Assembly (NCBI GenBank): GCA_965285935.1
Contig: OZ260662.1
Span: 86,118,001 to 86,182,000, forward strand
Origin: Ophelia neglecta
Taxonomy: Eukaryota
Direction: 5' to 3'
Length of the DNA stretch: 64,000 bases
Shown: in pieces, positions 1 through 34,400 of the stretch
Numbering within the stretch: position 1 is the stretch's first letter
How the letters are laid out: the number at the start of each line of letters is the position of its first letter
The notes under the pieces: model-generated
The model's input: only the letters and a program-made list of their open reading frames with translations
What the model was told of the DNA's origin: nothing
The model's database searches: none
Program-made: the position numbers and the translations under genes

Positions 1-2933
1 CCCTCGAATTCCTGAATTAAACGAGCCATCTCAGGACCACATACCATCCAACGACGAAGGGCAGCAGGGATCTCCGTCAGGCCAACAGCACCGCCGTCTC
101 CCTTTATTGAAGCATTGTTCTGCTCGTGGGCCTGGTCAATAGCTACAGCAGAGAATGCTCGCTTCGACTTCTTGACAACAAATTTCCCCTTCGTAAACTC
201 AGCATAGACATGGGGATGGAGCTGGCTCAGTGACACCATGTCTCGCAGGTGGATCGGCATCCATCTTGAGTGTGTATGGTCCAGAGCCAATGGACGATCT
301 TGGACAGGGCCTCTATGTAGAGTAGGAAGTCGGCCTCGCGTATCGATCTCACGTAGACCATCACAGCCAGTTTCAGCTGCAGGATCAAGTTCCAAAATTG
401 GAATTGAGGACATGCATCGGATCTCGCAACACACCAGTCTTCAAATGGTCCCACGTCATTTGCACCTTCCAAGGTCTGGATGTACTCCTTGTGGGCACTT
501 TGCTGAAGAAGATACAGGCTACTGGCTGTAACTTGGTGAGCCCGTCTTGTGCGTGTCACATGGGATGCTTTCAGAAATGAATCTGCTGTTCCACTGGTAG
601 CAACCCCGGCCTGAACGAGTGCTCCTGTCCAGCCGCTGCCCTCCAGAAGATCTCCAAGGACCTTGAGGGATGCCATCTCGATGTGTAGCCCACCAAACAT
701 AACTATGAATCGATCTTCACCATAACTTGTAGGCCAGCTCCATTGGATCTGCTTAGCCAGAGTGTAGAGTGGCTGGTCACATGTGAGGACTGGGATCTGG
801 CCAGGGTTCAGGATATCAACTGCCATTTTCACCATGTCCATCGAGTGTCGGATCATGGCTACAGATTTTGCCTCATCATGAAAAATGGGAAGCAAGGAGG
901 TGAGAGCCACATTTATGTTTCCTGGTGGTCGTGATGCTTGTTGGCTTGCATGGTATGCAGCCCAGGAGATCACCTCATACTCCTTCATGGTGTCAGATTC
1001 CACCACATGCTTCAGGTGCTCCAGCCAGCTGTTAAGCAGAAACAAATAATGGTTGTTTGAATATATTATGCATGGACATGTGGTAATTTGTGCTTGGTTG
1101 GTAAATTTAGCGATCTAATGTTCAACGAATAATGTAAAACCTACCAATATTCCTTCCGCAAGGCTTGAGGTATTAGCTGACAGTCTGCTCGGTTCGGACC
1201 TTCCTGTTTTGGCACCGGTGGGTCTTGCCTTGGAAGGGCAACAGGAGGTACATTGGTGTATGCCACGGGGAGAGATGCTGACATCTTCTTGGCACCAGTA
1301 GCATCATGATTGGTGTGGCCAACAGCCCGGGAAGCTCCATTGAAGTTGTTGTCTGGGTGTTGGAACAGCGAAATTCCAGTTCCATGGAATGAATCATACG
1401 CACTGGTAGAGCTGGGGTTGTGGTCTATGTTATCAACAGCAGTAGTTGTGAAGAGACCACCTTTCAGCTCAGGAGGACAAACTGCTTTCTCCATCTTATA
1501 GTAATGGCAGATGTTATGGCCAAGCTCAGTTGAGATGGCCAGCACCCGGTCATAGGAAATACTAAGCCCCAGATCATATAAACAGTCCACCAGTTCACGC
1601 TTGCGAGTCTTCGTGTGGACCATCACACCCAAGTAGATAGGGAAAAGATTTTTCCCTTACTTGATTGTGCCTTGCACATGGAGTCTGCTGATTTTCGCGA
1701 CGTCGTACCATGCTGTTGGACATCAGTAGTTGGGAAATTGTGAGCACTGGCTGGGGCAGTGTTGAAGAGCTTGACTGTGCCTTGATGTTTGGCCCATTTA
1801 ACACCATAGCAACTAATGCTAACAGAGACACTGGAACAGAATCTTCCTGGCTGTTGGTTCAAAGGAACCTACAAACTGGTTTTTCATCTTGAACATGTCT
1901 CTTCGCACAATGTTGGCAGCCCTGGCAAGATGAACAGCATCACTATCGGCATCAGGCTCACATGCTTTCCTCAGTGCTGGTCCAACGTCTTCACTGGAAA
2001 TGAGGACTATATCTCGGCCTTGCTTGTGAGCCTCCATGTCTGGAAAGTAAGACAGAACTCTCTTTTTGAGGTCAGTGGAGTGGACACGACCCGCAACATC
2101 AGTTCCAAGTTGCGCTAGCCTGCTTGTGTACAGATCAATCAGGTCGCTTAGTTTGAAGATGGGTGCAACTAGACAATCGGTGCGAGCATCCTCAATATAT
2201 GATACCAGCTCAGCAAATGCAAGCCCTTGATTCATTTTGTCCGCATCAGACTCTTCAGATGTTTTTGTTTCTCTAACACTGTTGTACAAAGAAAGCAAGC
2301 ATGGCATATGGTGCCGGGCTTCTTGTGCTATCAAGTCTCCTGCACTGAGTTTGGCCAGTAGGGATTTGTCCTGCAATTTCATAGCGGCCTTCCTGACATT
2401 GACATCTAGCCCAAATGTTGATGCCTTTCGAGTCAAAGACTCCTGATCTGGTGCAGGTTTGTCACAGAAAACAATGTTTCGGCAGAAGCAGAATCACTTT
2501 TCTCACCGGAACTCCTGCGAGTGAACTTCTTTGAGCTATCACCAGACTCATCGGCAGCATAGTCTTGGGGTTTCTTACGCTTCTCTGCACGCTTCAGTTT
2601 TGTTTTATTGTAAAGGAGCCTACACAAGTCGTACCACTTGGCCTTGTGTCGCTGTTATGTTCCTTCAATTCCATTCCCATCGTCAAGCCTTGAAATATTG
2701 ATTGATGTGGGCAAACAGCCAATCCTGTTGAAAGCTACAAGGAGCTCAGAAATTGTCTTGTACCCTGCTCCCTGAGTGCCACGAATAGAATTAGCTGGAC
2801 AGTGAAGTACTTCTGGCGTATCTTCCTGGCAGAGAAAGCACTTGCTCCAGTCAGTTGCAAGACCCTGGGCTGATGTCCTGTGCTGTAGAGGATCCACCAA
2901 CTTGTAAACCTTCGCTTGGCTATTGTCCCACAT
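1..2933 (-). mobile_element. Academ-superfamily (probably AcademX) DNA transposon transposase, decayed; continues beyond the left window edge
   Basis: Consecutive minus-strand ORF pieces join into one protein from ATG 2933 (GCTACCATGT). Motifs in order: DWSKCFLCQ..LHCP, LAKLSAGDLIAQEARHH..CL, GLFTTTAVDNIDHNPSS, SWAAYHAS, PGQIPVLTCDQPLYTLAKQIQW, MFGGLHIEM, HVTRTRRAHQVT, and (hand-translated, about 1-290) RWMPIHLRDM...AIDQAHEQNN..KGDGGAVGLTE..ALRRWMV.GPE. Lesions: in-frame TAA at 2655-2657 and frameshifts near 2470, 1850, 1650 and 290. GT-AG intron at 1144-1029. Family assignment is from motif recall plus the adjacent TAG termini with 3-bp flanks. Confidence 0.85.
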
Positions 2934-3198
2934 GGTAGCAGAAGAATACGTCAAAAATATGTGAACATGCTTTGTGTCAAACCCTATACATAAACTCTTG
3001 TGGCACTGTGCACAGACTTGGTACATGCATTCTAGGAAACCATCTCTATATATAACCTAGCCTGAGTTACATGTTGTTCTACAACAATTACACTGTTTAG
3101 ATACAAATTAAAATCTGCTGTTTATGTAACCCATTGTGTTAACTTGTCATGACCAGGCACTAATGTCAAGTTATCGTCTAGACAGCACGCAGTTACTG

Positions 3199-3662
3199 TA
3201 GCACTGCAGATAGGTGAAGAATTGTGGGATTGATAAAACAAAACTATTGTGTGTACCTCGAATACCAACAAACCAGAAGAAATAATTCTGGGCAAATTGA
3301 CGAAATGGTCCTTATTTGAAAATTGTTACATGTCAAAAAAATGGTTAATAAATCTTATTTTTCAGCTCAAATTTGTAAATATTTGTCATTACAACTGTTA
3401 TGTAGACGGTAAAATTACTGATTTACAATTTATAATATAAAAGAAAACCATTCCCACCCCTAGAATTGATTCAACCTACAAAATCAATAATTTTCCGATA
3501 AGTGGTGGCAGTCATTTTGAAAATGGCCGCCATTTTCGTCACATGTTGAATCTGAGATGGCCCTATAGCTAAAAATAATCAGCAAGGCATATAGTTTACC
3601 ATTGGACCAAATTCCATGCTTGTTTCATCAATCCCACAATTCTTCACCTATCTGCAGTGCTA
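3199..3662. mobile_element. Non-autonomous Academ-type element (MITE) or terminal cassette of the adjacent Academ element
   Basis: 3199-3240 TAGCACTGCAGATAGGTGAAGAATTGTGGGATTGATAAAACA is the reverse complement of 3621-3662 with 1 mismatch in 42. CTG flanks both sides (3196-3198 and 3663-3665), consistent with a 3-bp TSD. Internal near-palindrome AAAATGGCCGCCATTTT near 3520-3536. Confidence 0.85.
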
Positions 3663-4023
3663 CTGAACTTTGGTAAACAGAAATAGGTTTACAGTGCTCA
3701 CAACAATGTCTTTAATTTATATTTTTATTCCATAGCGGTCGGAAGTGTAGAATAATTGTGGTATAGGCCTAAGTATAAACTTACGTTAGACTAAACTTTG
3801 TTCAAAACTGATCTATCTGTTTTCTTAAAAAGTGTTGTTAAAGTGAAGCAAAATAATTTTTTAAATGTTTGTATCATCTGTATCAAAGATGTAGTTAAAA
3901 GGAACCGAAAGTGAAGCAATGAAGGAGGAATTCCGCTCGTGTGATTTCTGTACGCTATTGATATTTAGCTATTGCGGCGTCAGGAAGCATTTTTCTAATT
4001 AACATTGCTGTCATATTAATTAG

Positions 4024-7000
4024 ATTAAAGGAGGAGACGGAGAGTCATCCTGACCAGTGGTATCGTAAGAAGAACGCGGTGCACTACCGTCAAACTCTGG
4101 ACCTTCTCTGTACCCTGATAGGGACGCGCCCTGCCAACACGGTCCTGGTGGAAAACGCAACGTTTGGTATGGATTTCTTACACATTAAGTCGACGGCGAT
4201 TAGTCTGAAGTCACTTCTTATTTGTTTTAAACTAGGCCCTGTACTGGGATTAAAATAATTAGGCTATAACATGCGTCGATCACTGGGGCTGAACGGGGGA
4301 AAAAAAAGTATTAATAGGGAGCCCAGTTAGATACCAAGGAAGTTAGTGAGCAGTCGTCAAAAGGTCTTAAATTTTGGCGTTAAAAATAAACTGGATTAAG
4401 TTTCGCTCTGCATGTTAAATATAATGTTTGAATTTTTAAAGATCGGATTCACCCTACATGATATGCAAACCAGTTCATACTTCTGTAATATCCACTTGCT
4501 TTCAGGTCTTCACTCGGCCCTATTCTCCCTGGATCTACAGCCTTCAGATGTCGTTCTCACCTCCAACTTCACCTACCACGCTGTCCAAATATTGGTCGCA
4601 GCCAGGGGTGAGATTTGTTGCATTGGTTTTATTTGTACTTTAAGTCAATGTGTCTGCGGCCAAAAACTAATAAGGTGCTCAGCGTAACAGTATAAAGATT
4701 GCGTGATTAATGATAAATACACTGTATTTAAAGACGACCATGCATGCATGCATATATTAACATCAGATAGCTATACTTAGTTTATGTTCATCAGTGGCTA
4801 GTTTGATAAATGAGCGTTGACCAATTTAGAAAAAAAATGTATACACTCAATTCTTTCTAACCAATTCTGTTTTTGTTTTGCTGAAGGTGTTCAAATTATA
4901 CAAACCGAGATTGTATTCCCTCCCAAATCAGAAGATCAGATAGTAGCAACTTACGAAAAGGTCTTGAAGCAGAATCCGAACATCAAAGTGGCAATGCTTG
5001 GTATGAGAGCTTATGTGTTTGGTCATTTATAATGTGAAGACCTATATTGATGATACAATAGGCCATGTTTGCCAAAATTCAATAGAAGATGGGTTTGCCT
5101 GTCTCCATGGCCTCTTAAAATCTTCATTTCAGGAGTAATCATAACAGTTATCAATTAAGAATTTTTAGCCCAGCGTAAGTTTGAAAAAAAAAACATAAAT
5201 ATTCTAAATATGTTATTATTTATTATTTTATTTATTATTATTTTTGTACATTAACATAGCGCCTTTCCAGGCAAGCCTGATCAATGGCGCTTCACATAAA
5301 AAGAGACATAATCAATAGGAAAAGAAATTCCCATATATTACAATAAAACACATAAAAAAGCACATAATTAATTAAAAGACTAGAATCACAATTAATCGAA
5401 AGCTAGTCTAAAAAGTGTGTTTTTAATTTTGATTTAAATTTGCCAACTGTGGGAGCATTTCTAACATCATCTGGCAACCTGTTCCATAAAAATGGTGCTG
5501 AATAACTAAAACGTCTATGGCCATATGTCACTGTCCTGACACGAGGGATCATTAATAGGTTTCTGTTCTGAGACCTGAGCTGACGAGTGGGCCTGTACAC
5601 TTGTAATAGGTCGGCCAGGTAGATCGGGGCAAGCCCGTGCACAGCCTTATAGGTGAGGAGACAATATAGCCCTATTTATAATGCAGACCTATCAAACATT
5701 AATATGATAATATTCTTTAATGGTTCTCATAAAGGGGAATTCTTTTGCCTGTAATAGGAACAACAATAAACAACATGATTATATTTACTTCCTGCAGACC
5801 ACGTAAGCAGCCCGACGAGCGTGGTGATGCCGGTGGCTCGTCTAGTTGCCCTATGCCGTGCCCAAGGCGTCATCACCATCATAGATGGCGCTCACGCACT
5901 GGGCCAACTCCAACACCTCAACGTGGAGAGTCTGGGAGCCGACTTCTACACGGGTTTGTGAACGCTCATTATAGAAGGCATTTGGTATAATCACCTGCAT
6001 AATAGCACAAGTTTAATGTCTTTCAGAATGATTGGCCATTTTTCTTGGCTACTCATTCAATCATTAGACCTATAGACACACATGTACATGTACCTACAAT
6101 TCTCTGAAGGGGTTCCAACAATACAAGGTGCTCCGACATTCGAGGAAAATGTGATAAAATTATCTACAAGGAGGTGCATGCCATTGCCCAGCTGCTGTCG
6201 ATAATCCATTTAACTTGAATGTTGCTCAAGAAAGTCGATAAACTAGGAGAGATTCTGTTAACGACTCTATGATGAAAATGTTCTCCAATAAATTACGCGC
6301 ATGCTGCATCTTACTCAACTTCGAGAAATCCAACATTCCGTGCCTAATTATTATATTTACGACCTCCCCAAGTGGTAATCTACAATTTGCCATTAATGCA
6401 ACGATTGACCCTCTAACCAACCAATCCAAATCTGAAACGCTGGGGGAAGAAATCTTCTGCCAAGTGGGATTCATCCCAGAGAGGAAACTCTCCATCATGC
6501 ACATGCAGGTCCTTAATATTTGTACTACGAGGATGGACAGGTATATATTGGCCTACGCATGGAGGCAAGACTCCTTCCTCTATTCACCACCGTGACACAA
6601 CTCCTTTACTGACACAATACAATAGGCCTAACGTTAAACAATTTTATTGTTTCTTTCTATGTCAATAAAGAAAGATATTCATTTTTATATGATATGTAAT
6701 ATATATAGGATATTTTGAACAGTGAAACAAATCATGATAGAATTCGTTGAGCTGTGATCGCTATTCTATATCCGCAGGAAATATACACAAATGGTTTTTC
6801 GTGCCGCGAGGTGCAGCATATTTGTGGGTGTCGCCTGCTTTCCGAGATACAATTCGTCCTGCTGTGGTGTCTCATTTCCATGGTAACCGATTCCATTTCG
6901 ACTTCTGCGTACGCGGCACACGTGATGACACCGGGTACTACACGTTACCGCTTGCAGTAGAGTTCGTCAAAGAGCTCGGAGGAATGGTAAAATCATGTTT

Positions 7001-8092
7001 AATTTGGTTTAGTCGAACAATGTGTTTGCATCATCGGCAAACGTAGGGGTGTCACGATCTTTCTTTAAATCCATATAGGCTAGTCTAGATTATCTAGATT
7101 CTGCTTGCGCCGCGTTGTGTGGGACTGCTGCCCTTAGGTACACTGGTTAGGGGGCGGCGGGCTTCGTGGCTAAGGGCAGGATTTTCTAAAATATCGAGAT
7201 CTCTATATTTTAGCTATTGCAAGGGAGCTAGCACTTATCACGACACCTTTAGTCATGACACTTTTATTACGAGTAAAAAGATTTAGATTAGTCATTTCAT
7301 TTTCATTACGAGTCACAAGATTTAGACTTAAAACTTTCAGGTTCTATTTAATTTGCAATGATTTCCATTGAAAGACTGGAGATGTTTCGGAACAAGAATT
7401 AATAAATTATAATCTGTCTACAGGAAGTTATAACAAAGTATAACACCGAGCTGTTGGACGCGGCTGTTGAGCGTTTGGAGAAGGCGTGGAATACCAAACG
7501 ACTGGACATGGCTCCCTCTCTCCAGGCTCCCTTCATGAGACTCATCCAACTACCGGACATGTACAACTACCCCAAAACGTCGGTGAGCACAGTCAAATCA
7601 GTTAAGCGAACATATTTAAATGAAGTCAAGTTAAGGTTCAACCTTTCTTATGTTACAATATAGCAGTATATGAGCCTCCTTAACTACCTGATCCAAACAC
7701 TCAGAATACAATTGAGCCTGTTCTAAACTTCAATGGATGTCGCAAAGTTTTATGATTGGCCTCTTGAAAAATTGCCAGGTGCAAATACCAAAATGACCTC
7801 CCTCTACCGTTCTTAGGTCGGCGCTGGTGATTTAGAAAATGACCTGTTTGGACAATACAGGATCCAGGTGCTATGTATGCTGATTCAGGGCGAGCTGTAC
7901 ATCAGGATATCCTGTCACGTGTACACGTGTATGCAGGACATCGAGAGTCTTGAGAAAGCCCTACTCGAGTTAAAAGAAGCTCCGCCAAGGCGCAAACTAA
8001 ACAAGGGATATGAACTACCCATAATGCACTGGGATCTTTCGCCTTTAATGTTCGATGACATCAATAATGAAAAACCTTCCTCTCGCCTCTAA
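4024..8092 (+). CDS. PLP-dependent aminotransferase class V / C-S lyase, hercynylcysteine sulfoxide lyase (Egt2) / L-cysteine desulfhydrase / isopenicillin N epimerase-like; 5'-partial, 7 exons
   Basis: Exons 4024-4166, 4506-4607, 4887-5000, 5798-5953, 6778-6986, 7424-7582, 7817-8092. All introns are GT-AG and phases match; about 385 aa visible. Motifs: ESHPDQWYR, LVENATFG, TYHAV, MLDHVSSPTSVVMPV, IIDGAHALGQ (PLP Asp), ADFYTGNIHKWFFVPRG (PLP Lys, codon 6789-6791), GTRD, YIRISCHVY. The family N-terminal NHGS(F/Y)G segment was not found in the window. Confidence 0.9.
5212..5665 (-). mobile_element. 5'-truncated L2/CR1-group LINE: end of ORF2, 3' UTR and tail, in an intron of the lyase gene
   Basis: LLTYKAVHGLAPIYLADLL..YRPTRQLRS...PRVRTVTYGHRRFSYSAPFLWNRLPDDVR....FKSKLKTHF* is the typical L2/CR1 ORF2 C-terminus. 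It is followed on the minus strand by AAGCGCC...GGAAAGGCGCTA (stem-loop) and an AAT/AAAT tail. Confidence 0.9.
7044..7251. mobile_element. Degenerate hAT-like MITE in a lyase intron
   Basis: TAGGGGTGTCACGAT (7044-7058) matches the reverse complement of 7237-7251 (TAAAGGTGTCGTGAT) at 11/15, with a GC-rich interior. No intact 8-bp TSD. Confidence 0.4.
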
Positions 8093-9450: not shown

Positions 9451-12400
9451 CTACAGTAGAAACTTCCTAGACCTTTTTTTCCCAAATATAGCTCTCCTCA
9501 AACTGTCTCTAAGGCGCCATCCTCTAGAGAAAGGTAAGGGAACACTACTATCTTTGTAGACCTTACTACTATTCAGAACGCTATCGTTAGCAGTATCACA
9601 GTCTTTGTTTGTGGTCTTCCTCCGTTTCGTTGGGTGTTTGACACTGGTGTTACTCAGATTACTCTCATTTGGTGCATCCCTCTTCCTTTTAGAACAGACT
9701 GTTTTGCCTTTTTTTGATTCTTTCTTGTAAGAAGGTTGATCAAGGAAGTGCAGGCTTTCATATGTGTTGTCAATGTCAGATTCAGCCTGCTCTTGCAACA
9801 CGAGCCCTGGAGACACCTCATGTTTAGTAGTTTTACACAGATCATCCACAGCTCTAGAGTGGATACTACTTGGTGATGTGGAGGGGGTTTGATTGATATT
9901 TGATAATCCTTTGGTTTTGTCCACATACACAATCCGAGGTGCCCTGATAGCTGTGAGTTTCCTAGCCAGTGCCTTTGGTGTAGGGATTGAGAAAAAGCTA
10001 TCTTGTTTAAGTGAACAGCTTTTCCCCGAATCGTCTTGGCCTACATAACTCTTGATAGGAGTGTCTGCCCTCCTGTGATTGGATAGGTTCATGGCACTCA
10101 GTGATCTTGTGACTCTTGTGGTGGTACTATCTCTCATGTGACCTGCACTGAGTGACTTGGGGAGAGGCCTCAATCTATCCACATCACCTACACATGACTT
10201 CCTGTCACACATGTTGTTCTCACAGCACTTGGGTACAAGATAGACATTCTCCTCTTGTCTCCTCCTGTCTTTCCTAGGCATGACAATGTCATCCTTTCCT
10301 CTCCGGTTGAGAAAGGGGGCTCTCTCTACAACCTTGTCTCTCCGGTTGAGGATGGGGTCTCTCTCCAGTCTCCTGATGTGCCGTGTTGGTGAGGCCAGTG
10401 GTATGTTCCTTAGGGAGACACTTCTATTCAGCAGTGATGGCTGCATGGCAGGTTCTTTGATCTCTCTAGTTAGTTCACAAGGCTCATCTGCTATCTCATT
10501 AAGGAGGTGTTGGCTCACACATTTTCTGTAATAACAAAATATGAACATTAGCTTCCACTTTGATTACCTTCACAATGAACAGGGTATGTTATTTTTCCTA
10601 TGATTGTTAAGCACCTCCTTAAAAAGAATGCAATTATATGAACAGGTTTTAATGAAATAATTGAAATGTTATCTTAAAACTGGCAAATTTAAACCACCAC
10701 TCAGTCCCCTCGATCAGAAACTAGAAAAAATCACTGTGGGATATTTATCAACGAGTCATTTTTATCAGAACCAAGACAGCATCGGATAACTTTGAACACA
10801 TTGAAACAAGCAATAATGTTGACTTATTTAACGGTATTGGGTTCGTTGATAACAAATACTTGAAATTTTGGTCGATTTTATCATGATGGGAAACATAATG
10901 GACAAAGACAACTATAAGAAAAAAAATATAATAAGCTGCCAATGTTGCATTATTGTAAAATTTGCCTTGCTCACATGGGCGTCAACACAGCCAAAGAAAG
11001 AATCCAAATTGCTGTGTAAATAATTTTTGGATTAGTTCAAGGAAAATGTTAGAACAAAATACAGGGAAACAAGTATAAGAAGGTTAGTTCAGCATGCTGA
11101 GCAAGGAGCAACATACAGACACAAACCTAAGGATTGTAAGAAAATACTTATTCAATGATTATATTATAGCGAGCTTTCTGTGTTAATCTTTGAGGAAAAC
11201 TCTGTTTGACATGCTAATACACAATCACAAGGTATTAAGAAATAGTGGAATATGGATAATGACTCGGCTGAAGAGGGACGACATCATGAAATCATAAAGA
11301 AACATTAACAAGATAAGGGTATTCCTGGCCTCATGCATGGCTGACCAATAATTTAGATTAATTAAATAGGAAATAAGAGTTTAATTTTCAACATTATTTT
11401 CATCACAAGTTTGATCTGATCCCAACTCGGTCTTTTCTATTAATACATGTACATGTACTTTGGTTTAAATACACTCCTAAACTTATCATATACCAGTAAG
11501 AGAGAAAATGTCCTGCAGTACTGAATTCCATAATATCAAACCCAGAAGACCATCAATTGATATTTTACATAGCAGTACCAGCCTTGTTAGACTGCAGTAA
11601 GTTAATTTCTACTTTTCATTGAAAAAAAAAACAGAATTCCTGATGTGCCAAATGTCAGAAAATTAATATCAACTGCAAATCACAAGAAGAATGTATCCTG
11701 AAGGTTTTATTTGTCACATCCAAGACCTGCTGGATAAATTTTGATAGAGAAAGGCTGTTTCTAAGAATCCCTGTTTTCTTTTTAATTTCTCATTTCTAGT
11801 ATTGTATTGTCTTTATGTAGTATTACCCTAAAAACCTTGGGCCCATTATACATGAACATATAAAAACTCAACACAAGTTGAAGAAAAACAGTTAAAAATC
11901 GATTGAGCTCCATATAATCAACACTTACAAAATCCTTTTCTTAGTCATTAAAATACTGTTTTCTGTAAGCCCATGACTCTTCTTTTAGCCAAATTATCAT
12001 GAAATGTTTCTTAATTAATGTGTGTTTTTTTGCTTGGTATTATTTAGGTCTATTCAGCATGTTGGGTTAATCTTTTTACTCCCGGATTATGATTATAAAG
12101 GTTGAAAATTATTAGAAGATACAGAAGGAAAGGGGTTAAAGAACAAGAGGAGTTAGGAGGAAGCAAGCATTAAATCTACCTGTCCCATCACCTATCCAAG
12201 ACAGTGGTTACCTAATGACATGGCCAAGCTCAGAGCCAGTACGGGGAGCTATGTATCGCCTCTCAGAGCCAGTAGGGGGAGATGCTAGTTGCCTCTCAGG
12301 CTCGTAAGGCTCATTAAACTTCTTGACTATCGCTTTCAGGTGTTTCTTACGGCCAACGTCTTCTTTTAGTAAGTAGTACCAACCATCTACCTCCTACAAC

Positions 12401-15400
12401 AGCATAACAAGTAACAGGTAAATAGACATTCGAGTAGTTTTATATGTTTTTTAAATTTAGAATATTTAAAAAGCAAAACACCTGCCTTCAACACACAATT
12501 CAGAGATTCAACACTACCTTAAACTACTGTCTTGCAAAGCAATAGTATTGACTTTCAAGAGTAATCAGCCAAAGAGAAGTAGTAACATAATATATTAGTT
12601 TGATCTCTCACAGTAGTGTAAAATGGTCGGTCCTAGCTAACACTACTTACCCTCTTAGCAGAAAATATGGACTCCACACCAAATGTCATGCATCCAAGAA
12701 ACTCAGTGTACCTGTAAGGAAGGGCAAAACTATATTCATTTCACATAACTGTTCATACCACTGTTTATTTGATCCATACAGCATTAATATGAATTGTTAA
12801 CATGGAAATATCTATGTATTGTTATGGCACAATACTGGAGGGGTTGCAATGTTTCAGCTGTGGACATGGTAGGGATTTGCATTTTTAAGTGTTTAAGGGA
12901 CAAAAAACATTGAAAAAAGTTCTTAGTCTAGTAAGTCTACTCACTGTGACCCTTCAGAATAGTTCCACACTGACACCAACAGTCTCTTCTTGATATCTCC
13001 TGGCAACAACTCACTGTAAATGAAAAATACCAACAAACTTAATTTCATTTGTTTACTTCAATGCATACATGTATGTGAATATGTAGTAAGAGTGTGCATT
13101 TCTGATTGATGCCTATATCACAGATTTTACTCCCCCTTAGATTCTGTCAATGATGTTTTTATTTATTTTTTTGCACTTGAAGTGATGATATAGATGTCTC
13201 ATCTTTTTACTTTCTTTTACTTTCAAGTGACAATGACTTATAAGTGATGGTTTGAGATATTGAATAAGTGCCTTAATGTGTAGAACATAGGCAGTTAAAA
13301 CCTTCCTTCATGCATGGTGAGTTTGAATTATATTGCATGTTACTAGTATGACAAGCTATGATATGGCTTGACACTACCATCCCCCCCCCACCCCCACCCC
13401 CACCCCCCCAAACCCCCACCCCACCCCTCCACCTCCCCACCCATAAGTTATTATTGCACAGATCTTAATTGTCAAGACATATATGAAAATCTTTAACCTC
13501 TTAACTATAAATCTATCAATTTGAGAATTATATATGTTATAATAACCCAAATCGCCACCGAAGACACCATGCCAAAAGCAACAAAATTTACAAGATGAGC
13601 CTGATCGAATGCTGCCCTGAATCATAGATGCTGTAGGTGCCTCATAACATGTGTTGTTTCATAGGCAGTCAATCGCTATGGAATCCTATGTGTACCATAG
13701 ATAATCTCAAGGAAACAAGGCAGGACAATGTGTATCATTTCATTAAACTTGATAAATGAATTACATCCCAAGCGTTACAGTGAAAAATGTTTATGACTTT
13801 ATATTAATCTAAATTAGATTATGAAACATTACTTTCTTCAATCTCATTCCTAAATTTGAAGGACTAATGACTTACAATGAGAACTTTTCTTCAAACAATG
13901 GATGGTTTGTATCTCTGGCAACAGACGTTGAGCACTTTGTCCTTCCTGTGTCATCGGGAACTAGGGATATCTGAAAGGTGCATTCATACATACTTAATAA
14001 ATTGATAATACAGTATATAGTGGTTTGACAGCAGTACAAAATGGTGTGTCAAAGCTTTTAAAACTGATTATTAAAGCACCAAATATCACAGACAAGAAAA
14101 TGCATTAAGTTTGTTTATGTTCACTTTTTCATTATCATGACATGCATGTGTATTTCATAAAAAAATCAAATTCCTTTAAACATATACCAAGGGAATGTCA
14201 GCATTACACACAATGCATGTATATAAATTATGTAGCTTTAGCCTGGAGGACTGGTCCAGCATGTATTGTGCCATCATAAAATTAAATGTAATAACATCAA
14301 AAATGACTTTCAGTCCTTTCATTGACTGCTAAGACACTATTGTGTTTAAGGCCACAATTCTCTCTCTTACTATGTACTCTGAACTGCACTCAATCCAACT
14401 AAAGTCTTATGTGCATTGTACAGACTGACAGCATTTAAAGGAGTGACATAGCCCATGTGTAGCTATATGTAAGCCTAGAACTAGGACAGTAGGGGCTATG
14501 ACACTGGTCTATGTGGGTAACCAAGAGAGTACACCACTTCAGACAGTGGCTCATCACCTTCAAGCTAGTAAAATGATAATTTGTGGTATAGAGTTTGTGG
14601 TAGCATACCTTAACACGAGTGTTACACGTCCCTCTGCTTATAGACTGAAGATGTCTGGCTTGGATCACTAAAAAACAAAAATATCAAATGTACCTAATAC
14701 TAAATGCCACATTCAATAAATCTCAAAATAATGACCTGAATATATACCCAGTTATTAAAAAGATTCATTAATTATTGTTATCTTTCACACAAAAAACTCA
14801 GCAGAATAATTAAAAGCAAAACATGCAGAAACTATAACAATAAACCTTATTTAGGTATTCTGGAATATTTTTTTTTTGTTACTTACATTCTTTTAAACAA
14901 AGGAATCTTAAGATAAGAAAGTGTTCAAAGTACATACCATCAATAGTAAGCATTCCATAGTTAAGGTACACTGACAGCTTGAGGATGCCTTTTCCCATCA
15001 GAAACTCTGATTTCACATTGTGACTTTTGGAGAGAGTTCCACTATCATAGTACATGTAGTCTCTTTCGTGAGATGGCTCTGATATCTTGGCCATAACAGA
15101 CTGGACTGAGTCAGTAGAGCTAGTGGGGGCTGTACTGTGCTTACTGCACACACCAGAATCTTCACAGTCCTCCACCGGCTCCTTGACTTCATGTTGTAGT
15201 CCTCCAGGTGTCTTTTCTGAAACGCCCTCACACCCCTTGTCTGAATATATAGGAAATTTGGATTGTTGCCACTGATTAATAAAAGCAAAGTCTTCTGGAA
15301 TGTGTTGGTTCCAAATAAGTGGTTGTCTTCTTGGGTCCTTGTGACATTGGTATGAGCTTGTTGGTATGACTGAGGCACTGGAATATGGAAATTGATTTCT

Positions 15401-15988
15401 CCGAAAGTTACCAGATTTTGTTTGTGGTTGATTTGACACTCTGAGAGGACTGTGTTGAGCAATGTTTCCCAGGGGGTTTTGTTGTCTCATCTCTCCGTTG
15501 TGTGTGTATGACTGAGTCCTCTGGACAAGCTGTCTGGCCAGTTCATAAACGTAGCTCTTAGGCATGGAAGAAACAGAGCCATTTGCTGTACACTGTTGAG
15601 GTTCTGGTAGGAAAGGTTTGTGGAATTTATCTGGTGAAACACAAGACACACTTCTCTCCAGTGTCCTCCTGACAGCATACCTGGGACTAGAGGGGCCTCT
15701 ACGCTGTGTGTTAGAGATATCCTGAAAGGCGCGCGTAGGCTCCAATGGTTGGTGCTTTGAGAAGCCTTGAGGATGGCTGTGGGTCTGGGGGTTCTCAGCT
15801 TTCTGGAGTTGTCTCGAGGGCCTGCCTCTTGGCTCCAGGAACCCATAGTCAGTGAGCTTCCCATCTGTGGCCATGTTCACTGATAGAGCCTCGTAGTTGT
15901 AACTGGATTGAGAACCAGTCACGGTGGTGGGAAGTGCTGCTCTGGCCCCCTTCATGCTAGAACTTCTCTCAAATCTCCACTTTAACAT
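9451..15988 (-). CDS. C2-domain protein (RGS3/PsGEF-type C2) with long low-complexity N- and C-terminal arms, about 863 aa; gene A
   Basis: Exons 15988-14938, 14667-14609, 13970-13876, 13013-12945, 12711-12651, 12393-12212, 10525-9451. All GT-AG, phases 1,0,2,2,0,2 consistent. C2: GILKLSVYLNYGMLTIDVIQARHL...VKISLVPDDTGRTKCSTSVARDTNHPLFEEKFSFELLPGDIKKRLLVSVWN...EFLGCMTFGV....EVDGWYYLLKEDVGRKKHL. The start codon is the least certain part. Confidence 0.85.
13379..13443. repeat. (CCCCA)-type C-rich tract, G-rich on the sense strand of a gene A intron
   Basis: Many consecutive C4-C9 runs separated by A. Confidence 0.8.
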
Positions 15989-31468: not shown

Positions 31469-34400
31469 TTAGTAAAAATATCTAAGAGAAGATGATTTGA
31501 TGATTCTTACTGTAATCTTGGGTTTCCTCTTCTTTCTCATCATACCGCACAGACCAATGCCAGCCTCTGACATCATTGTCTGATGGAGGTTCTCTTTGTG
31601 AGATTCAGGAATGAGCTTTCTCGGAGAGTGACTGTCCTCGATGGGAGAGGGTCTGGGGGCAGGGGTGGAGGAGATTCCAGAATCTGAGGCCACTATGTTC
31701 AAGGGGCCTGTGACACCCCACAGAGGGTGGGTAGGGGGGTAGGATGGGTGGCCAGCACCCCTGGGAATAGTCTCATACACTGAGTCTGGACTAATAGCTG
31801 GAGTCTCTCTCCTCACCATTACTGGCCTTTGAACTTCAAGAATTACCTTTTTCTCAGATTTCCTAGTTAACAAAGAAAAGTATTTAAAAAATATATTTGA
31901 GAGGAAATAAATCAATAATTCAACCCACATTTTTACATTGACACTGACAGTGCCACAGACCCAAGAGTATTTTATTTAACGAGAGAATAAAATTGGTGGC
32001 AGATATCAAATGCACAACATTGCCATAAATAATGTGTTCAACAGATAATAATTCAAAATAAGATAATAGATAATGTTCAGAAAGACCACTCCTGGGATAA
32101 GGCGGGGTTGTTATTTATTCAATAGCCCTGCCCTTAAGAGTTGTTGAAGTCTTTGTATAACCTACTTGATGATCTTTGCCACCTTGTCATCAACCATGGA
32201 CCTGCTCAAGTAAGTGCCATTGATTCGGATCACTTTATCATCCACTCTCAAGCCAGAAGATTCTGCTGGGGAACCTAGAAAAAAGAGATGTGTAAGTGTC
32301 TGTCATATCATCCAATAATGTGATAGTTATTTGTCTGGTTTATAATTATGATAAATTCAACAGATATTGTCACAAATAAAGGTAGGTCTTACCTGGATCT
32401 ACTTTGCTCACAAAGACTGGCCCAAAGGAGTGGCCCATAACGCTGAACCCAAAGCTAGCACCAACCCTCCTGATCACAAACTGCAAGGAACACAAAATAA
32501 CTGTCATAATGAAAAGTGAAACTTGCTACCAACAAGCGCTAGATTTGGTTTTGTTATATGAAACTTTGAGGTAAGTTATTAGGTAAATGTGAGAGTTTAT
32601 AATAGGAGGTTCATTTAACTTGAGGTTGGAGATAAACAAGAGGAGTTTTACCACGTGAGGTTCCAGGCTGATCACTTCATTAAACATTGGGGAAGCTTCA
32701 ATACTGGGTGGTAACGAGGGCACATCAGGAATATCTGAAACGTAGAAATGTTAACAATAGTAATGAATACATTTACTAGGATAAACACCTGAAAAGGCTA
32801 TGATAATAAATACATATCTGCAGGTCAGCTGTAGTTGCAAGATATGCTTAATTCACAAGATACTATGGCAGCTTTGCACATAATACATTTAGAAAATGAC
32901 AACTCTAGTTGACCTGGGCAGAGTAAAATTCATGACACTTGAAAAGGTTTAAACCAAACATCTTTGCTTCCACATGTGCTGAGGTTATTAATGCACACTA
33001 TGAATCTATGTATATGCCACACTACTAACAAGTCGTTCACTGGAACTATGAGAGCCTGATGTTGAAATGAACAGGGACTGGGTGTTGATTTTTTTTTAAC
33101 ATATGACAGGCAGACAGACAGTCATACAGACAATTTTAGAGGAAGAAGTAGTTAAAGTAGTGTGTAGTGGGAAAAGTAGTGTCTGACCAACTTGTTCAAC
33201 TACAAACTACTTGAACTACATCTTCCTCTTGATTCTGGCATCCCATTTCCTCTGAAGGGTAAGGCCAAATAGAGAGATTTATCAATAAAGGTGTGTGACA
33301 AAGATGAAGACAGCAGTGAATGTAGCTATCTTATAATCTGGTGTTAGTAGCTATCTTACATGTTCCTCCCTCTGATTCCCCTGGAGGGGGCAGTCGTGTC
33401 GCCACCTGCAGGTGCTTTCTTCTCCCCACGTTATCAGTCAGAAGGTAATACCAACCATCTACAGTCTGAAAGTGTTGTGTATCAAGTCAGTTTAAATGAA
33501 ATTAACACTTCAATAAAGTAGGCAAGTAGTCACCATAGGCAGTGGTGTGGTAGAAAGATTTGAAAGAACAAAGAATACAAAATAATTGAGACAAAATGAA
33601 GTGTTACCTTTTGCATCGACATGATATGTTGTATGCCAAATGACATGCATCCCAAAAATTCTCCATGTCTGGAAAAGTAAAATGTTAACAATTTAAATGT
33701 TAATTATTATCATCTGAGTCAAACCAAACTTCCATTATCACTTCCTGATCACATGATGGATTATGTTACTACTTCCAATAAGGTGATCATGACAGAAATA
33801 CATGCAGCTTATTACTCACTCGTGGCCTTTCTCCTTGTGCCAGACAGAGATAAGCAGCCGTTTTCTAATATCTTCTCCCAGCAACTCACTACAAAAATCA
33901 TCATATAATTATTTCATAACTAATACTCTATTTCATAATAACTCAATGGCTTACTCCTAGTTCATTAAATATCAGGTAACTTAAAAATTTATTTAAAAAA
34001 GTAAAATAAAGGTTGTTCATCTCCATAGAGCATGAACGAAATTATCCATGAATATTTAATTTACATTTAAAACTTACAAAGAGAACTTTTCATCAAATTC
34101 AGGGCTGTTAGTGTGTGTCACCACTCCTGTTCTACACCTGGTCCTCCTACTGTCGTCAGGCATCAGGGACAACTAAAAAAATACATTAATGTGGTTATCA
34201 AGCAAACAGAGGACAATATATTTTGATTTTACTGGCGTTCTTTATTAAAAGTGGACCCTATGACATAATACACAACTTTACAATTATGCCTTGTCTAAGG
34301 TCAAGGTTTAGTACATATTTTAATTGCCTACTTATTTAAATAGGTATATGTGTTTAATGAGGATGTAAGTCAGTAATACTGTTATCATAGATTGTTAATC

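Follow-up and report, generated by a model that had tools for sequence, protein, structure and literature searches.

A divergent annelid gene of the Egt2/LolT family in Ophelia neglecta and its candidate role as a C-S lyase

Ovothiols are major antioxidants of the eggs and tissues of marine invertebrates, and OvoA is the first and last enzyme of the animal pathway for their synthesis. OvoB, the bacterial enzyme of the intervening lyase step, is classed as MalY-type (PMC13674229) and was not found in animals outside Hydrozoa (PMC8433421, PMC8623360). A eukaryotic lyase is not named in the accessible parts of PMC9890322 or of 10.64898/2026.02.12.702910. The family treated here comprises other pyridoxal 5′-phosphate (PLP) enzymes, among them fungal Egt2, the Mannich cyclase LolT, plant L-cysteine desulfhydrase (LCD) and CefD-like proteins. 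We analysed one of its members, encoded at positions 4024..8092 of a 64,000-nucleotide window of the Ophelia neglecta genome (contig OZ260662.1 of assembly GCA_965285935.1, positions 86,118,001 to 86,182,000, forward strand), which an initial annotation made from the sequence had put forward as an Egt2-like candidate for the lyase step of ovothiol synthesis. Judged from its residues and family, its product probably works as an Egt2-type C-S beta-lyase on S-substituted cysteines. A literature search, conducted largely without full texts or supplements, found no paper assigning the animal clade of this protein to ovothiol and no functional study of the automatically named proteins within it.

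Gene structure and family placement

Seven exons separated by six GT-AG introns combine in the window into a single open frame of 385 codons plus stop (Table 1), in which the motifs DHxSS, DGAH, GNxHKW, GTxD and RIS of the initial annotation are all found. The start codon and the N-terminal NHGS motif are both absent from these exons. Scanning the 40 kb upstream for motifs placed exon 1 at G000:C2:86115194-86115321, 2.7 kb upstream of the window; its 128 nt carry an ATG and an NHGSYG motif and end in a phase-2 donor compatible with the acceptor at 4024. The whole gene has eight exons and seven GT-AG introns and codes for 428 amino acids with no internal stop, so that the six normal introns first counted are correct for the window and one short for the gene. 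Exon 5 matches Pfam PF00266 (aminotransferase class V; 27.1 bits against a cut-off of 21.5) and, together with the open spliced frame, bears out the reading as an intact PLP fold-type I class-V enzyme. Because the intron positions and phases (2,1,1,1,1,0,0) recur in the paralogues p41a and p41b of the same genome, this is a native animal gene, as the initial annotation held when it dismissed contamination. The protein is likely cytosolic, since its N-terminus begins at a conserved FG motif.

A profile of 27 homologues retrieved LolT (8DL5, 9AZA) and Egt2 (5UTS) together at E ~1e-73, followed by C-DES/SufS at 1e-29 to 1e-23 and NFS1 at 1e-12. The closest full-length relative is Owenia P0004 (41-42% identity), and a sequence search with it gives the same order, with Egt2/LolT first. 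The structure model used for the fold search is that of this Owenia counterpart and not of the Ophelia protein (predicted local distance difference test score, pLDDT, 92.9; last 25 residues below 50). Egt2 occupied ranks 1-9 with template modelling (TM) scores of 0.80-0.82 and LolT rank 10. Egt2 and LolT are nearly tied as nearest solved structures, and the Egt2-like placement first proposed agrees with both searches. Atlas searches returned family-level matches only, with plant LCD clusters among the nearest. Many relatives already bear automatic Egt2 or LCD names in the databases, and the gene therefore adds to a known family.

Nesting within NFS1, SCLY or kynureninase, the outcome that would have spoken against this placement, was found neither by scores nor at the loci examined. 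The homologues score far under the NCBIfam cut-offs for NFS1/IscS/SufS and lack the conserved catalytic Cys: there is no conserved C-terminal Cys, and the one Cys shared widely is C182 (67 of 89 clade rows). No animal SCLY chain figures in the best 60 PDB rows of the profile and P0004 searches, nor was an SCLY locus located in this genome. P0004 reaches 22 bits on the kynureninase model TIGR01814, whose cut-off is 246. OvoB (EtOvoB, 5Z0Q) appears neither in the best 60 PDB rows nor among the fold matches listed. An NFS1 gene lies elsewhere in the genome (C5:7.97 Mb), as do kynureninase-like loci (C7:52.25 Mb and C12:34.74 Mb), none of them at this gene. On these sequence comparisons the protein is a member of the Egt2/LolT/LCD/CefD-like family and not of OvoB, NFS1, SCLY or kynureninase.

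In a tree of 49 named rows one clade (clade A, support 99/88) unites 34 animal rows, and its sister group consists of early-diverging fungi, a ciliate and a rhizarian; the bootstrap of this tree was not fully settled, and N. crassa Egt2, plant LCD and characterised CefD were outside the set. A FastTree of 258 rows, from which 14 short rows had been dropped, gave an 89-row core with support 1.00 and the sponge rows just outside. The animal clade was less clean in a quick tree of 94 rows, where unnamed rows and Leptophrys fell within a 59-row group. As regards CefD, bacterial relatives stood outside the animal clade in the 49-row tree and the FastTree, which included no characterised CefD. Orthology of the animal clade to Egt2 is likely and is put no higher because N. 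crassa Egt2 and plant LCD are absent from the trees.

Active-site residues and the pocket segment

K219, D192 and R367 are each invariant in all 89 rows of the clade. The 5UTS alignment shows equivalents of Egt2 K247, Y134 and R75 in this protein, and the Y114/Y134 and R57/R75 pairs agree with a single 5UTS chain offset of 7. Under that offset no Phe is found in 5UTS at Phe343, the Egt2 residue named as sandwiching the intermediate. Tyr at the Y134 site is unspecific, being present also in 168 of the 169 family rows outside the clade. The R57 equivalent occurs in 74/89 clade A, 26/57 other eukaryote-like and 14/112 bacterial-like rows, the last frequently having Arg one position later instead (58/112).

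The initial annotation had compared the segment DFCVRGTRD with an Egt2 motif given as F-x-W-x-GTxD and took the difference as a hint of altered specificity. The motif was wrong: N. crassa Egt2 (5UTS) reads F-E-F-V-G-T-V-D, without Trp, and a Trp at that place is typical of bacterial-like relatives (77/112). What stands is that the segment lines the active site. Thr262 aligns with LolT T304, through which the partner subunit contacts the phosphate (PMC13351049), and wild-type LolT differs from the evolved LolTv4 at sites matching V259 and R263 (Y301N, S305Q), so that the FCVRGTRD segment plausibly shapes specificity. The pocket segment is variable throughout clade A. Among 284 proteins compared, the form C-[VI]-R-G-T is found only in this protein, Capitella P0002, Owenia P0004 and the fragment P0001, and the C-terminal HWDL tail only in the first three.

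Candidate function and its alternatives

The distribution of the clade was read from two homologue lists (the best 120 of 582 and the best 120 of 165 matches, one list holding only proteins of at least 397 residues), in which most rows are unnamed and 43 of 240 name an animal. Clade A is represented, among named rows, by sponges, anthozoans, priapulids, a flatworm, bdelloids, annelids, molluscs, brachiopods, a copepod, echinoderms, hemichordates, amphioxus and tunicates, and the 240 listed rows include neither a named bony vertebrate nor a named insect. Most of these groups have published reports of OvoA, and its loss is reported for nematodes, most insects and bony fish (PMC4768315, PMC8623360, PMC8433421). 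Six clade-A-bearing species are matched by name to an OvoA report: Capitella teleta, Lingula anatina, S. purpuratus, B. floridae, Ciona intestinalis and Neocalanus flemingeri. Among the named matches listed, the clade broadly follows OvoA, the absences counting for little, and the unrelated distribution that the initial annotation named as contrary evidence was not seen.

Two groups of records call for comment. The Mesorhabditis belari proteins P0195 and P0314, a potential nematode counter-example, nest in bdelloid rotifers (100/100; 48-58% identical to bdelloid-type proteins) and are read as assembly contamination or rotifer-to-nematode transfer; no other named nematode is among the best 120 rows. 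P0351 of the springtail Orchesella dallaii groups among early-diverging fungi and was likely acquired by horizontal transfer.

The O. neglecta genome has two OvoA genes (C5:57.060-57.080 Mb and C12:50.130-50.139 Mb). Both carry methyltransferase-like 3′ exons as well as the iron motif HX3HXE, and identity over exon matches is mostly 50-78%; the methyltransferase-like exons are not among the matches listed for TIGR04345. As a separate observation, the conserved FGE-domain stretch of the C12 copy reads RFSRWWFRRH vs RFARFAFRRH, a possible specificity change. The model of the OvoA C-terminal methyltransferase also has at least five near-identical matches at C5:11.48-11.58 Mb (L035-L038), away from the OvoA genes and all containing stop codons, and a further spliced match is found at C2:92.04 Mb.

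From the gene structure, residues, tree position and OvoA genes observed, we infer reaction and substrate as follows. The homodimer would bind PLP at Lys219, with Asp192, His195 and Tyr114 and with Thr262 contributed by the partner subunit, and Arg367 would hold the substrate carboxylate. After deprotonation at C-alpha, beta-elimination would set free pyruvate, ammonia and the sulfur moiety, here 5-thiohistidine formed by way of its sulfenic acid; ovothiol A would then be completed by the methyltransferase domain of OvoA. The leading candidate substrate of the clade is 5-histidylcysteine sulfoxide, which OvoA makes. That the clade performs the lyase step of ovothiol synthesis is a tentative proposal to which we give somewhat less than even credence; that this particular paralogue does so seems rather unlikely. 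Its basis is two residues and a coarse distribution, and the proposal suits the clade better than this divergent copy. A wider reading, doubtful though conceivable, makes the clade a substitute for OvoB: an inherited relative of fungal Egt2 that would release 5-thiohistidine and would have disappeared together with OvoA from bony vertebrates, insects and nematodes, with the annelid paralogues, including the tailed copy with Arg in its pocket, and the two divergent OvoA serving different thiohistidine products. A clade with matching distribution and Egt2 substrate residues narrows the gap in the animal pathway to a few candidate proteins; if the ovothiol link fails, it remains a widespread invertebrate PLP enzyme and a possible source of hydrogen sulfide (H2S).

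Several points weigh against the ovothiol proposal. Losses that affect insects, nematodes and bony vertebrates are common, and no OvoA-bearing placozoan or cartilaginous fish is among the named matches listed. LolT scores like Egt2, so the family does not fix the reaction. The genome has at least five family genes including this copy, four of them in clade A (the counts are lower bounds, because the PF00266 genome search was insensitive, giving five matches and missing this gene). On sequence grounds this copy is a divergent annelid-type paralogue in a small subgroup with Capitella and Owenia, of modest support (68/95 in the 49-row tree, 0.98 in FastTree). It has Arg260 where 55 of 89 clade rows have Gln, carries its own C-terminal tail, and lies on C2, unlinked to the OvoA genes. 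At 80 bacterial loci of relatives there was no OvoA-exon match, with short queries that may miss EgtB; the 25 recurrent neighbours are all unrelated, and OvoA was above cut-off in one of five such bacterial genomes, elsewhere on the chromosome. In published work, Egt2 is described as selective for its own regioisomer, and OvoB likewise (PMC9103826), CsdA does the lyase step in vitro, on the 2-isomer (PMC13674229), bacteria borrow unlinked lyases, ovoB adjoining only 4.4% of sulfoxide synthases (PMC13674229), and S. pombe without egt2 still makes some ergothioneine (PMC5066259). A gene named hercynylcysteine sulfoxide lyase is a protonephridial marker in Capitella larvae (10.1101/2020.10.16.342709), which fits general conjugate handling.

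The alternative that survives best is a general cysteine or cysteine-S-conjugate beta-lyase, active in H2S production or in detoxification in excretory tissue, with ovothiol finished by any PLP lyase. We regard it as a serious contender, if improbable on the whole. The proximity of plant LCD clusters in the Atlas, the L-cysteine desulfhydrase names given automatically to many relatives and the Capitella marker, whichever paralogue it represents, are all in its favour, as is the sufficiency of non-specific lyases reported in microbes. His164 of DHxSS also matches the LCD/CefD-like consensus, where Egt2 has Val. However, the named distribution follows OvoA, and this protein keeps Tyr and Arg at the two sites where pepper LCD, the one LCD compared, departs from Egt2 with a Phe at Y134 and no R75 or F343 (PMC10585658). 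The alternative of a plant-type H2S desulfhydrase is weakened.

It is also possible, and in our view unlikely, that this annelid-type paralogue took up other PLP chemistry, either CefD-like epimerisation or LolT-like C-C bond formation, with a sister paralogue keeping the lyase role. The tie of LolT with Egt2, an identity of just 37-39% to the clade-A paralogues, the confinement of the C-[VI]-R-G-T segment and HWDL tail to the annelid-type subgroup and the LolT/LolTv4 differences flanking that segment would fit such a change. Yet the LolT N-terminal motif and D233 are absent, NHGSYG and Asn216 being Egt2-like, support for the three-member subfamily is modest, and the context suggests no substrate.

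Allelic differences were taken from contigs of three runs of one sample, possibly the assembly's own source, and these contigs cover the introns. Of 40 differences listed (of 87), 14 are exonic, 10 synonymous and four conservative, a ratio of nonsynonymous to synonymous polymorphism (pN/pS) of 0.12 (p = 2e-4); none of the 12 indels listed (of 17) is exonic. Both results point to purifying selection on the gene. A decaying duplicate, put out of action by the 5.9-kb transposon inserted just 422 nt past the exon-1 donor, is very improbable given these values, the open frame, canonical splice sites and complete catalytic residues, and the counterparts in Capitella and Owenia.

Other features of the locus and comparison with described enzymes

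The intron 1 transposon has terminal inverted repeats of ~420 bp (97% identical) and broken coding frames without Pfam matches; it is presumably Chapaev/CMC-like. Contig depth is raised over the element, which is multi-copy, and none of the contig joints listed bridges it as an empty-site allele would. An extra 51-bp copy of its repeat end lies at window 3191-3241. The intron 4 repeat fragment, with a contig depth of ~200-700 against 10-35 on the exons, presumably resembles the 3′ end of ORF2 of a long interspersed nuclear element (LINE). None of 78 neighbouring frames tested, in the window and upstream, has a Pfam match. Long low-complexity frames on the minus strand (window 9454-10563, 14882-15988 and 31472-31975) are probably exons of one convergent gene, and short stretches of them, likewise without Pfam match, resemble C2 and PDZ domains.

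Among the paralogues, the copy at C2:107.45 Mb has DGAQ like Egt2, and its pocket segment, FEYLGAAD, is interrupted by an extra intron. Clade B is a separate animal lineage that places the C7 paralogue together with Patella P0237 and a green alga; it has different introns and is extended at the N-terminus. The records P0003 (Mizuhopecten) and P0123 are of 800 residues with two tandem family domains, either a fused gene or a merged annotation of tandem copies.

Table 1. Parts of the gene, repeats and paralogues (window positions unless a contig is given)
Feature	Position	Strand	Remarks
Intron 1, 3′ part	1..4023	+	Total intron length 6,702 nt
DNA transposon in intron 1, window part	1..3661	-	Element of 5.9 kb, genome 86115744-86121661
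Exon 2	4024..4166	+	Arg57 (aligns with Egt2 Arg75); ENAT motif (Asn87, Thr89)
Exon 3	4506..4607	+	Tyr114, aligns with Egt2 Tyr134 and LolT Tyr125 (PLP-stacking residue)
Exon 4	4887..5000	+	Part of spliced frame
Repeat fragment in intron 4	5403..5675	-	Not part of gene
Exon 5	5798..5953	+	DHVSS; DGAH (Asp192, His195; predicted to contact the PLP pyridine, like LolT D210/H213)
Exon 6	6778..6986	+	Schiff-base Lys219 in GNIHKW; FCVRGTRD segment with Thr262
Exon 7	7424..7582	+	Part of spliced frame
Exon 8	7817..8092	+	Arg367 (RIS); C-terminal tail with HWDL motif; stop 8090-8092
Tandem paralogue pair p41a/p41b	C2:41.84-41.86 Mb		Clade A; all seven intron phases match this gene
Paralogue	C2:107.45 Mb		Clade A; rougher gene model
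Paralogue	C7:52.71 Mb (L014-L015)		Clade B; rougher gene model

N. crassa Egt2, a hercynylcysteine sulfoxide lyase (5UTS, 5V12, 5V1X), is the best or tied-best solved relative, with 27-28% identity to the Owenia counterpart. It has in common with the Ophelia protein NHGS[FY]G, R75, Y134, the Lys motif, GTxD and the terminal Arg. The latter differs in DGAH vs DGAQ, DHVSS vs DVVSS and FCVRGTRD vs FEFVGTVD, in a shorter loop after TSH and in the added C-terminal tail. The host of the Ophelia protein has OvoA, whose product is 5-substituted. LolT (8DL5; evolved 9AZA, 9AZB), of the same family and equal in score, has its Y125, D210, H213, K236 and T304 all represented here; it forms C-C bonds, with NAPSCG in place of NHGSYG, Asp233 in place of Asn216 and Glu at the R75 site. 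Plant LCD, near in the Atlas clusters and the origin of many automatic names, differs at least in the pepper enzyme by the Phe and the missing Arg described above, this protein having both the Tyr and the Arg. OvoB of E. tasmaniensis (5Z0Q) catalyses the step proposed here and is no close homologue of this protein. The proteins named automatically, by similarity, 'hercynylcysteine sulfoxide lyase' or 'probable L-cysteine desulfhydrase' (Lingula XP_013398268.1, Branchiostoma XP_035682693.1) belong to the same animal clade, from which this copy stands apart, with Capitella and Owenia, in the subgroup that combines the RGT segment with the tail.

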